From: Thermodesulfovibrionales bacterium | GTDB lineage: Bacteria > Nitrospirota > Thermodesulfovibrionia > Thermodesulfovibrionales > SM23-35 | Assembly: GCA_963715195.1 (NCBI GenBank) | Contig: CAVQRT010000003.1 | Span: 250,792 to 314,791, forward strand | Direction of reading: 5' to 3' | Length of the DNA stretch: 64,000 bases | Part shown: positions 41,705 through 44,973 of the stretch, one piece after another | How positions within the stretch are numbered: position 1 is the stretch's first letter | Layout of the letters: every line of letters starts with the position of its first letter | Made by a program: the position numbers and the translations under genes | Notes under the pieces: model-generated | The model's database searches: none | Seen by the model: only the letters and a program-made list of their open reading frames with translations | Told to the model about the DNA's origin: nothing

Positions 41705-41794
41705 GGAGGGGTGGCCGAGCGGTTGAAGGCGACGGTCTTGAAAATCGTTGTAGGGGTGACTCTACCGTGAGTTCGAATCTCACCCCCTCCGCCA
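41705..41794 (+). tRNA. tRNA-Ser (TGA)
   Basis: GGAGGGGTGGCCGAGCGG...ACGGT-CTTGAAA-ATCGT, long variable arm, GTTCGAATC...CCTCCGCCA. Confidence 0.96.
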
Positions 41795-42109
41795 ACTAAG
41801 TTGTTGGTTTTTAAGGAAACTACTATGCCAAAACTCGTTCCGGACCCGTTCCGGAATGGTTCTTTTTCGGTTCCAGTTACTGACATTCCTTTTACCATTT
41901 ATTTATTCCCCCTATTCTATCACACTTCTTTAAGAAATCAATCGTAACTGAGCTCACAATAAGAAAAAATGTTTCATGAAGAAAATTTAATTGAGAAAAT
42001 TTATAACTCTCAGGATGGGGAAGTCATGGTTTATACTGTCTTCTACATTTTTCTGTGTTACAATTTCAGTGAAATGTCAGTTAAAACGCTCTCATAAAGG
42101 TAAGAGAAA

Positions 42110-42277
42110 ATGACATTCCTTGTAATCACCATTATAATCGTGTTGATTGTGATTGTTATTATGGGCATGATAACTCTGCATAATCATGTCGACAAGACTA
42201 CCAAAGAAATGATGGTTCGATTCTCTATGGTTAACAACAAGGAGACATCCGGCAGAAATCAAGATAATCTGGACTAA
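42110..42277 (+). CDS. 55-aa single-TM small protein
   Basis: Manual translation MTFLVITIIIVLIVIVIMGMITLHNHVDK... Confidence 0.5.
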   Translation: MTFLVITIIIVLIVIVIMGMITLHNHVDKTTKEMMVRFSMVNNKETSGRNQDNLD

Positions 42278-42336
42278 CCCGATTCACTTCTTTTTCGTTG
42301 ACGGCAGGGGAGAAACCGAGAGCGTGAGATTTAGTA

Positions 42337-42459
42337 TGGAGGTGCGCAGCCAGCAGGAGGGCTACTGGCTGCCAAAATGAAGAAAGTTATTTTCTGTTTA
42401 TAGAATACTGAGAAAATATGAAGGAATGACGAAGAAAACATGGAGAACTTATGAAGATA
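42337..42459 (-). repeat. ~125-bp element with CCUCC hairpin (candidate sRNA), copy B
   Basis: Reverse complement of 28453-28577. Confidence 0.8.
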
Positions 42460-42503
42460 GCATCCCAATTTGATTTTTTGAAACTACTCTGCCACTATTA
42501 GTC

Positions 42504-42728
42504 ATGGACCAAGACGAAATTCTCAATCAGATGCAGCAGCAAGTCCGCTTTCTCAATGATGCGCTTGAAAAGTACAAATACCAATTTGACCAGGATACAC
42601 TGGCCCGGCTATCGGAGGAGTTGTCATCGCTTACTCAGAATATCATGGAGATAGACAAAGAACTGCGGTTGTTGCAACAGTTGCAACCTTTGACGGATAA
42701 TGCTCAAATCAAGAAAGACCAGTCTTGA
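42504..42728 (+). CDS. Small coiled-coil hypothetical protein
   Basis: Heptad-rich 74-aa ORF overlapping the next gene's start. Confidence 0.5.
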   Translation: MDQDEILNQMQQQVRFLNDALEKYKYQFDQDTLARLSEELSSLTQNIMEIDKELRLLQQLQPLTDNAQIKKDQS

Positions 42729-43228
42729 ACGACATCACCGGTGTACTGATTGAGATTCTTACCGACCTCATAAAAAGAATTGTTAAACTAATTGTGTTGT
42801 CTGTCCTGCTGGTTTTTGTTTTAAGTATTTCAATTCATGCTGCGACATGGGATTTTCTTGGTAAGACAGTCGATGGAAGTATTTATTATTATGATAAAAG
42901 TTCAGTTAAATACCTCACAGGGAATATTGTACGATTCTGGGGAAAAGAGATTCCAAGCGAAAGCGCGAGAAAAGAGAATATGATAGAACTTGGCTTCAAA
43001 TATCTCGGTTATCTCGATGGCAAATTTATGAAATACAGTAGTCATAAAGTATTAGCGGAGATAAATTGTTCCAAAGAACAAATAAGAACTTTAAGTTATG
43101 TAATTTTTGACTTGGAAGGGAATATTATAGGGTCATTGAATGAATCTTCAGATTGGGTCCGCATAGTTCCGGAAAGTATAGTAGAGTTAGCTTCTGATAA
43201 ATTATGTCGTCAAAAGGGCAGGAAATAG
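42725..43228 (+). CDS. Surface-adhesin E-like exported protein
   Basis: Signal/TM, then W..G...YYYDKSSV...RFW.K...EINC...W..IVPES...LC pattern. Confidence 0.7.
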   Translation: MNDITGVLIEILTDLIKRIVKLIVLSVLLVFVLSISIHAATWDFLGKTVDGSIYYYDKSSVKYLTGNIVRFWGKEIPSESARKENMIELGFKYLGYLDGKFMKYSSHKVLAEINCSKEQIRTLSYVIFDLEGNIIGSLNESSDWVRIVPESIVELASDKLCRQKGRK

Positions 43229-43259
43229 AGGACAGGCAGAGGGCTAAGGGGGATTCGCT

Positions 43260-43415
43260 TTGACAAAGTATTCTATAGCAGGAGCTATAATCGCATTTGC
43301 AGTTACTCATTATATTCTCAAATTGAGTCTTATACCGACAATCCTGGCGACGGCTGTTGGAGGGATTCTTGCCCAAGTTATAGCTACTTTGTTGGTGAAA
43401 ACGAAGAAAAAGTAG
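43260..43415 (+). CDS. 51-aa two-TM protein with basic tail
   Basis: Manual translation MTKYSIAGAIIAFAVTHYILKLSLIPTILATAVGGILAQVIATLLVKTKKK; AAGGGGGA RBS. Confidence 0.55.
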   Translation: MTKYSIAGAIIAFAVTHYILKLSLIPTILATAVGGILAQVIATLLVKTKKK

Positions 43416-43557
43416 CAGAGGGCATCAACAAAGAGATTAAAAAGGAACTGATCAATAAAGTTTAGATATGAATATATTTCGGCTATAATTTTCTAAATCA
43501 TTAACATCGGTAAATTTAGATCTATACCATCCCATATTTCTTTGTTATGATGCCACG

Positions 43558-43720: not shown

Positions 43721-43945
43721 ATGAATGATAATACTATCCTTCAAGGTCTGCCGGATAGACCACTTCTGAGAATTGGTGAGGTTGCACATTTCTTCTCTGT
43801 CTCTCCAAAGGAAGTTTATGGATGGTTCAATTCAGGATTACTTGAGGGGAAAAAGCACAAGGGAGTTATAAAGATAAGCCGGACTTCTGTGATTGATTTC
43901 ATCAAGAAAAATGAGGGAAGAACTGGCGGAAGGAAAATCATATGA
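43721..43945 (+). CDS. Excisionase-like helix-turn-helix protein
   Basis: LLRIGEVAHFFSVSPKEVYGW...G.L...IKISRTSV. Confidence 0.75.
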   Translation: MNDNTILQGLPDRPLLRIGEVAHFFSVSPKEVYGWFNSGLLEGKKHKGVIKISRTSVIDFIKKNEGRTGGRKII

Positions 43946-44195
43946 TAAATTTGCGCCTAACACAGTCTCCCCCTTATACCCGGTTAAAAGCCGGGTTATT
44001 TGTTTCATGCAGAGGCAAAGTTGGATCAGATCGATATCTATCAAAACCTGAAATACCGTAAGAAATGATGACCTTGATAAAGAATGCTCAAGAACGCAGT
44101 TAATCTAACCGGAACTTATGTAATACGCCCTTTTCCGACTCAAACGGCTCTTGCAATATATCCTTAAAGGAGTAACATATAAATAAGAAATGGAA

Positions 44196-44358
44196 TTGCG
44201 ATATTCAGGACGGGATTAACCTGAGGATCAACAGTAGTAAGGGGAGCAGGAGTTGGATGTAGGCGAGTAAGCCTCCCGAAGCGAGGAGGAAACCCAAAGC
44301 ATCCACCGAGCACCCACATGAAAGAAAGAGCTCAAGGTATCCCGAACTGAGATCGCAA
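44196..44358 (+). ncRNA. 6S RNA-like (SsrS-like) rod-shaped RNA
   Basis: Closing stem ttgcgat/atcgcaa, tcag/ctga, cgggat/atcccg, acctgag/ctcaaggt; A-rich central bubble; gggagc/gcaccc and tggatg/catcca inner stems. Confidence 0.7.
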
Positions 44359-44484
44359 GTTATTCTGGAGCCATTTAAGGGTATTTGGTAACCCTGCCAA
44401 CGCAAAAGGCGGAAATTAAGACTGCCGGCGTAGAGAGGTTGTCCAATCAGGCAGAGCCCATAAAATGGCTCTTTTATTTTATGG

Positions 44485-44870
44485 GGCAGTTAGTCTCAGA
44501 CTTTGATCTGCAACAAAGACAATCCCAGCCTCTGTCTTTTATTCGAAGTTCGGGAACCCTTCGTATTTATTAATCCGCTAACTTACAGAGGCTTCAGACC
44601 GAAAGTATTAGGTAATGTTTGGAGAATGTGCAGCTGTAGCAATGTCACGCTGTACGAAGGTACAAGGCATTCATTCTGTTCTCAGATAGTCGCGATATGG
44701 ATAATGTGAATGAGTTACAGGCTCAGGTGCTGATGAGGCATTCAGACATGAGAAGCACAGAGCAATATTACCATGCTAATCCTAAAAAACTCATGGATAT
44801 TGTTGACCAGCTTGATAAGGTGGTTCCGTTCACTCGTTCCGGAACCGTTCCTAAGGGGTCAGCAAAGTGA
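44485..44870 (+). pseudogene. Tyrosine integrase C-terminal remnant
   Basis: LYEGTRHSFCSQ, then after a frameshift LMRHSDMRSTEQYYH; N-terminus absent; ends next to the att repeat. Confidence 0.85.
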
Positions 44871-44973
44871 ATACTGGTAAGGGCAGGAGTGAGTTCGAAT
44901 CTCACCCCCTCCGCCGTATAAGTTGGATGTTGTGCCCTCTGTTCTCACAGTCGCATGAAATGCTTCAGCAACG

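Follow-up and report, generated by a model that had tools for sequence, protein, structure and literature searches.

As described in the cited portions of the literature, 6S RNA (SsrS, RF00013) mimics an open promoter, binds the housekeeping RNA polymerase holoenzyme, and is released by a product RNA (PMC8876501; PMC13501541). The portions cited here also state that most bacteria have one 6S gene and some have two, with Bacillus subtilis (6S-1/6S-2) and Legionella pneumophila (6S1/6S2) carrying a second paralogue at a separate locus (PMC4211561, PMC8876501). In the Bacillus cereus group, the cited part of PMC7726162 describes a tandem ssrSA-ssrSB operon.

We analyzed a 6S-like RNA encoded in a 64,000-nt stretch of DNA from a Thermodesulfovibrionales genome (contig CAVQRT010000003.1, positions 250,792 to 314,791; here, the window). 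Like 6S/SsrS, the window RNA is a rod with a closing stem, central bubble, apical arm, and core words, and it matches RF00013 over the full model; it differs in that its type is ~165 nt long, scores under the Rfam cut-off, shares only ~46% mean identity with the rny-linked type, lacks a fixed gene neighbor, has its own second domain, and has a predicted product RNA without the conserved GG. As in B. subtilis and L. pneumophila, paralogues occupy separate loci; unlike those pairs, there are five 6S RNAs in this genome and ten in a relative (G156), at changing sites and sometimes inside islands. Tandem 6S-like units behind one promoter recall ssrSA-ssrSB, whereas here they occur only sporadically, have the second domain at their end, and are found alongside a canonical 6S at another locus. 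A literature search found no publication describing multiple 6S genes in Nitrospirota, rRNA-leader 6S, or island-borne 6S, and the survey of Wehner et al. 2014 may list some of the genes reported here.

Judging from sequence comparison, we think it reasonably probable that the window RNA is an extra stand-alone 6S-like RNA of a multicopy Thermodesulfovibrionales family, which likely binds the housekeeping holoenzyme on behalf of the host and is likely island cargo beside a lexA-dinB cassette.

A 6S-like rod in a decayed tRNA-Ser island

The RNA and its surroundings comprise the following features of the window.

41705..41794 (+), tRNA-Ser(TGA), the integration target (Rfam/tRNA annotation)
41767..41793 (+), left att copy, the tRNA 3' end (exact 27-nt repeat)
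41833..41863 (+), short repeat of family D1, found again at 44832-44851; putative arm-type integrase site
42725..43228 (+), cargo gene of the Adhesin_E family (contig C15 has a near-identical copy next to tRNA-SeC)
43721..43945 (+), HTH_17 (excisionase-like) gene (Pfam; found ahead of the RNA in metagenome contig L193 as well)
44021..44544 (+), block common to lexA-dinB-linked copies, 82-89% identity (upstream region, promoter, RNA, second domain, dinB tail)
44151..44178 (+), predicted sigma-70-type promoter, TTGCAA-16-TAACAT (comparative pattern)
44196..44358 (+), 6S-like RNA, stand-alone type ("class C") (fold, RF00013 match, covariation)
44230-44241 and 44316-44327 (+), central bubble of the 6S-like RNA, 12 nt by 12 nt
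44368-44471 (+), second conserved rod domain with internal loops, ~104 nt (comparative)
44472..44482 (+), U-rich tract, predicted 3' end (sequence)
44496..44543 (-), 3' end of a dinB gene (DNA polymerase IV family), final 15 codons with the stop (sequence comparison)
44554..44870 (+), tyrosine integrase C-terminal remnant, split over two frames (alignment to PF00589 integrases)
44889..44915 (+), right att copy (exact 27-nt repeat)

The first-pass annotation of this DNA had placed the RNA between att repeats, with a Xis-like HTH gene on one side and a broken integrase on the other, and this arrangement was confirmed; it had overlooked the second rod (44368-44471) with its U-tract and the minus-strand dinB 3' remnant (44496-44543). 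A genome of the same genus (G001) retains the empty site, with tRNA-Ser joined straight to the right flank, and G002 has 50 nt between the two flanks. The GC content of the island is 39.6%, relative to 46-49% on both sides. The HTH gene matches HTH_17 in Pfam, and the integrase remnant, which has no Pfam match, aligns weakly from 44554 (28-35%, E 1e-3 to 8e-3) with intact PF00589 integrases. Of the marks of a tRNA-targeting integrative element, the locus has the tRNA 3'-end repeat and an empty site but not an intact tyrosine integrase.

Cargo pieces of positions 41900-43480 recur in the same genome at 84-96% identity (C15:8606-9308, C27:7523-7761, C3:14757-15394, and C3:279244-279368), and two of these pieces lie beside tRNAs (SeC and Pro), so small islands in this genome swap parts. 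Tyrosine integrases of ~400 amino acids with an LYEATKHSF-type motif were seen at tRNA-Ser, -SeC, and -Leu genes across the order, often as 1- to 4-kb remnants (L384-L385, L388-L390, L394, L395, L398, and L399).

Every helix that the earlier reading had assigned to the RNA was present. The closing stem is built from TTGCGAT 44196 / ATCGCAA 44352, TCAG 44205 / CTGA 44347, CGGGAT 44211 / ATCCCG 44339, and ACCTGAG 44219 / CTCAAGGT 44331; the apical arm contains GGGAGC 44242 / GCACCC 44310 and TGGATG 44254 / CATCCA 44300. When folded, positions 44190-44365 gave a rod with a central bubble at -59.8 kcal/mol (z -4.98), and none of 200 shuffles was equally stable. RF00013 aligned over model positions 1-187 with 37.9 bits (E 2.4e-5; E 4.1e-6 genome-wide). 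Because this score lies below the gathering score of 46.4 bits, the RNA is absent from a gathering-level Rfam scan, which returned only three tRNAs for the window; copies below the cut-off are likewise missed by annotation. Relatives exceeded it at 2 of 13 loci scanned (L112, 46.7 bits; L103, 49.3 bits). The window RNA keeps the 6S core words GGGAGC, AAGCC, GGAA-CC, GCACCCAC, and CUCAAG, and the unpaired bubble between closing stem and apical arm is kept in the family, with covariation, its strands measuring 11-14 and 10-13 nt in most copies. A coding or toxin-antitoxin reading of the unit was rejected, as all six frames are short or interrupted. Nor does the unit look like a MITE or insertion-sequence-derived repeat, as the shared flanks stop at differing points between copies rather than at fixed ends with terminal repeats.

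Covariation agreed with the fold. In an alignment of 28 copies, 97.4% of the cells at 38 rod pairs were paired, and 11 of the 38 pairs showed two-sided compensatory change. None of 500 shuffles reached the observed level and slid partners paired in only 28-45%, both controls being generous since this alignment (A2) holds close relatives and takes its structure from its own consensus. In a model-fitted alignment of 59 matches, two-sided change rose to 23 of 38 pairs, a figure biased toward the model. Together with the full-model match, these data uphold the 6S-like identity proposed in the first-pass annotation.

The claim that pairing had stayed intact beside a broken integrase also stood, as the window copy retains 38 of 38 pairs while both the integrase and dinB are broken. 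The RNA was the best-conserved segment in all nine relatives compared (81-94%, versus 59-85% for the dinB tail), and it is 89-94% identical to its eight closest relatives, with flanks at 59-88%. Such conservation beyond broken neighbors is the pattern that selection on the RNA unit would be expected to leave.

Ancestry and ties to mobile elements

Given that it holds the last 15 codons of dinB, the window copy derives from a lexA-dinB-linked copy. A 524-nt block is common to the window, a copy on contig C30 of the same genome, and a copy in G003, and the last two face an intact lexA-dinB pair. Homology with the dinB-linked copies runs through the dinB tail and ends ten bases before the integrase remnant, and in our tree these copies are the nearest relatives of the window RNA. 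A single deletion that began within dinB and reached into the integrase may have fused what is left of the two genes and removed the DNA between them, with selection presumably keeping the RNA unit through the event. At eight other loci, dinB is reduced to a tail even though sequence continues, ending at codons 353 to 416, and some of these truncations perhaps stem from one event. The lexA-dinB pair adjoins the RNA in two orientations. A conserved site over the promoter of the lexA-like gene (L343:2270-2300, L074, L194, and L006:12130-12150) resembles a GAAC-N4-GTTC SOS box; none was seen by eye in the promoter of the RNA.

How far the RNA belongs to such elements bears on an alternative that we consider unlikely, in which a mobile lexA-dinB cassette or tRNA-Ser integrative elements have the RNA as a working component that reprograms the host polymerase to their own advantage. 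Consistent with this possibility, three att-flanked tRNA-Ser islands in three genera carry the RNA (the window, L341, and L351), all of them decayed; one of these (L341; G167) has a related integrase remnant and the same dinB tail, with a like flanking-repeat arrangement in other letters. Att copies were found at two of eight tRNA-near loci tested, both tRNA-Ser (L341 and L351). At L193, the HTH gene, RNA, and dinB end share the window arrangement at 79% identity, and the two orientations of lexA-dinB fit the same idea.

Against it, none of seven fully spanned att-bounded islands with related integrases contained the RNA; of two matches among 29 stretches that surround related integrases or islands, one was L351 and the other fell outside its island. 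Among the neighbors of 192 loci, we counted dinB at 28 (4 of them a distant DinB only), purH at 13, a tRNA at 12, and an integrase-like gene, used as bait, at only 2. Enrichment near tRNAs was rejected, as proximity equals background (a tRNA within 1 kb for 5 of 84 copies and 23 of 277 intergenic gaps), and so was the HTH_17 gene as a fixed partner, being present in 2 of 57 family genomes. Searches of 50,697 phage records and 72,556 plasmid records found no match, and four viral pattern scans yielded one contig only (L043). A phage-borne 6S on that contig was rejected, as a picorna-like polyprotein frame runs into the 3' two-thirds of the RNA and the contig is most likely chimeric through misassembly. 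Within L043:1-230, picorna-like sequence adjoins the RNA's 3' portion and the beginning of its second domain; coming from a probable chimera, this hints only faintly, at best, that one RNA contains both domains.

The check for homologues in tRNA-Ser islands or phages, as the first-pass annotation had suggested, found them in islands and not in phages, and the idea of a decoy belonging to a mobile element fared poorly, given three further sites in this genome and a purH-facing site kept in five genomes of two genera (G000, G001, G002, G003, and G016). Apart from these, a variety of housekeeping genes adjoins the copies (90 of 123 neighboring open reading frames scanned). Taken together, the mixed neighbors, background tRNA proximity, empty related islands, lack of phage or plasmid matches, and conserved purH site indicate that the RNA is best described as occasional island cargo rather than a regular element gene. 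The island is a vehicle or resting place, and our best reading is that this 6S paralogue belongs to the host lineage, travels on islands now and then as cargo, and persists longer than the genes around it.

Promoter, predicted transcript, and second domain

The possible sigma-70 promoter noted in the first-pass annotation gained comparative backing: TTGCAA (44151) and TAACAT (44173) are separated by 16 nt, and the pattern TTG-16/17-TA..T lies upstream of 100 of 132 unique nontandem copies with enough flank, relative to 2.6% of shuffles. A simple promoter scan of the window did not list this promoter, whose support is comparative, and its -10 word deviates from the common TAAACT and TAAAAT. A transcript of ~290 nt would start near 44185 and end at the U-tract. 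The 165-nt rod, in which the closing stem and apical arm flank the bubble, would mimic an open promoter and sequester the holoenzyme; release would come from short product RNAs with a predicted start near 44229. Three loci form a subtype without the second domain (L042:1474-1644 (-), L350:2550-2716 (-), and L067:2429-2608 (-)); their upstream region differs and contains an inverted repeat across the predicted -35, possibly a regulator site.

The second rod has no match in Rfam at E 10 and shows two-sided change in 12 of 27 pairs (23 copies). Its model matches 20 of 141 genomes of the order, mostly directly behind the 6S-like rod. An integron attC reading was set aside on inspection by eye, as no attC core-site words were seen in the domain. 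In genus g23 (L321:2005-2290 (-), L322, L323, and L324), the domain lies behind a different rod RNA of ~130 nt, which has its own promoter-like site, lies downstream of a sigma-54 activator gene, and has no Rfam match. Because it also occurs behind this unclassified RNA, the second domain suggests a reusable 3' module; it could serve in processing, stability, or termination.

These features also bear on whether the RNA, derived from 6S, has stopped binding polymerase and become a two-domain transcript with another job, such as protein binding or a processing scaffold. The cited part of PMC8414754 describes GG at product-RNA position 4/5 or 5/6 as conserved in 6S and an adenine just upstream of the product-RNA start as common. 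The predicted product RNA lacks the GG (its template reads GAGGATC, not CC), whereas the rny-linked copies keep the template CC; the score under the Rfam cut-off, the long branch separating this type from the two others, and a second domain not known in 6S that also follows a different RNA in g23 all point the same way. On the other hand, the bubble and its length are kept, as are the apical 6S words and an adenine before the start (present in 24 of the 28 aligned sequences, with the start site being our estimate), and close relatives exceed the Rfam cut-off. We regard a change of function as still less likely than element ownership, and the anatomy of the window RNA fits the open-promoter mechanism of 6S. 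Least probable of all is a functional family whose island copy was stranded recently and is now carried along in silence: its neighbors are broken, TAACAT is atypical, and three other copies could supply the function, but all 38 pairs are intact, the RNA is better conserved than its flanks, and the promoter spacing and second domain are intact. By the evidence of its sequence, the window RNA is a real 6S paralogue and likely functional.

Three types of 6S RNA in the order

A search of the whole genome with RF00013 gave five 6S matches. One, at 82.5 bits on contig C8, lies directly before RNase Y (rny) and YmdB and is the canonical copy; the other four are weak (C30, C3 twice, and C2) and homologous to each other, and one of them is the window copy. 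The separate core 6S that the first-pass annotation had suggested looking for therefore exists, and the window RNA is not at a canonical ssrS locus (before rny or ygfA), the rny site being held by the C8 copy. Its proposal of a second 6S kept while the element decayed fits this canonical gene elsewhere, the empty site in G001, and the conserved RNA beside broken genes.

With a covariance model built from the 28 copies (family counts at a score of at least 111 bits), 38 of 57 family genomes matched, with 74 copies in all; 16 genomes had two or more, and single-contig G156 had 8, so that copy number is not a binning artifact. Strong matches also occurred in families f2, f6, f7, f8, and f12, and 140 further genomes across the phylum (109 from families absent in the order searches) gave no match at E 1e-13. 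A pattern scan of species-representative genomes found 58 loci, 56 of them titled Nitrospirota or Thermodesulfovibrionales; 55 matched the full model and one (L055) only in part. L072 and L088, from metagenome-assembled genomes titled outside Nitrospirota, were pattern matches without a model match and were dropped as chance. Tandem units behind one promoter were found in G004, G010, and G156. In another family, G063 has eight 6S-like matches (L102-L109), of which L106-L109 are more divergent and fall outside the three types in the tree.

The third type, recognized from weak model matches, is situated in one rRNA operon, downstream of the promoter and upstream of 16S; of 20 hand-picked weak matches, 15 were just before 16S and 5 before rny. 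In several families of the order, this leader 6S is found in one of two rRNA operons, between boxA-like words and 40-130 nt before 16S. The rRNA-leader 6S loci are as follows.

L120:2475-2670 (-); L122-L133, L138, L140, L141, and L340

In most relatives the two rRNA operons have differing leader types. The second rRNA leader of this genome (L332, G000:C30:101800-102400) keeps a flanking hairpin and the stem ends and has lost the 6S core, and similar stubs occur in G001-G004, G020, G021, and G024. The leader and stand-alone types have in common a CTGAGG that precedes the bubble, the words of the apical arm, and the lack of the GG motif; in contrast to the window type, the leader type is transcribed with pre-rRNA, lacks the second domain, occupies a separate branch, and is only a stub in this genome. 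At 98 bits or more, the leader type was present in 11 of 12 genomes without the stand-alone type and in 14 of 32 with it, a tally over family genomes at least 90% complete that are kin rather than independent and whose leaders are not always assembled. Strict exclusivity was rejected, as 17 genomes have both types, and any replacement of the leader type is therefore at most partial. G156 has all three types, with ten RNAs.

In a tree from a short alignment whose bootstrap is not settled, the three types were separated, with the stand-alone type on a long branch from the rny-linked and rRNA-leader types; its mean identities to the leader and rny-linked types are close (0.49 and 0.46). Descent from an escaped rRNA-leader 6S was rejected, as the stand-alone type sits on its own branch (98/99) outside the leader group. 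In family f11 (L121 and L134-L136), the rny-linked 6S has its own long AT-rich hairpin behind it, before rny.

This 2.8-Mb genome has seven RpoD-like loci (C31:55134, C30:95486, C30:293823, C2:306728, C8:68896, C22:4889, and C7:28245). Eleven of 178 unique copies of the RNA lie within 2.3 kb of an RpoD-like gene, where seven loci in a genome of 2.8 Mb would lead one to expect roughly 1.5%; these loci are related and nonindependent, and the link to RpoD-like sigma factors is suggestive only. The additional copies may be of use to the several RpoD-like sigma factors that these genomes encode, and may stand in for the 6S type of one rRNA leader in relatives. We hold as doubtful, if less so than the alternatives weighed above, a three-tier 6S system composed of a rny-linked copy, a copy made with pre-rRNA, and a moving two-domain decoy that would travel with the lexA-dinB cassette on tRNA-integrating elements, reach up to eight copies, be tuned to extra RpoD-like sigma factors, and replace the rRNA-linked copy where settled.

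By itself, the location in an island is a modest finding; more striking are how many copies there are, the added domain behind the rod, and the division of 6S into three types within the order. If a 6S paralogue does move on islands, this would be a route for the spread of a global transcription regulator. With five to ten 6S RNAs per genome, in three lineages and with different expression modes, these bacteria would provide a natural test of the need for more than one promoter mimic, and the order would also test whether 6S paralogues match different housekeeping-type sigma factors.
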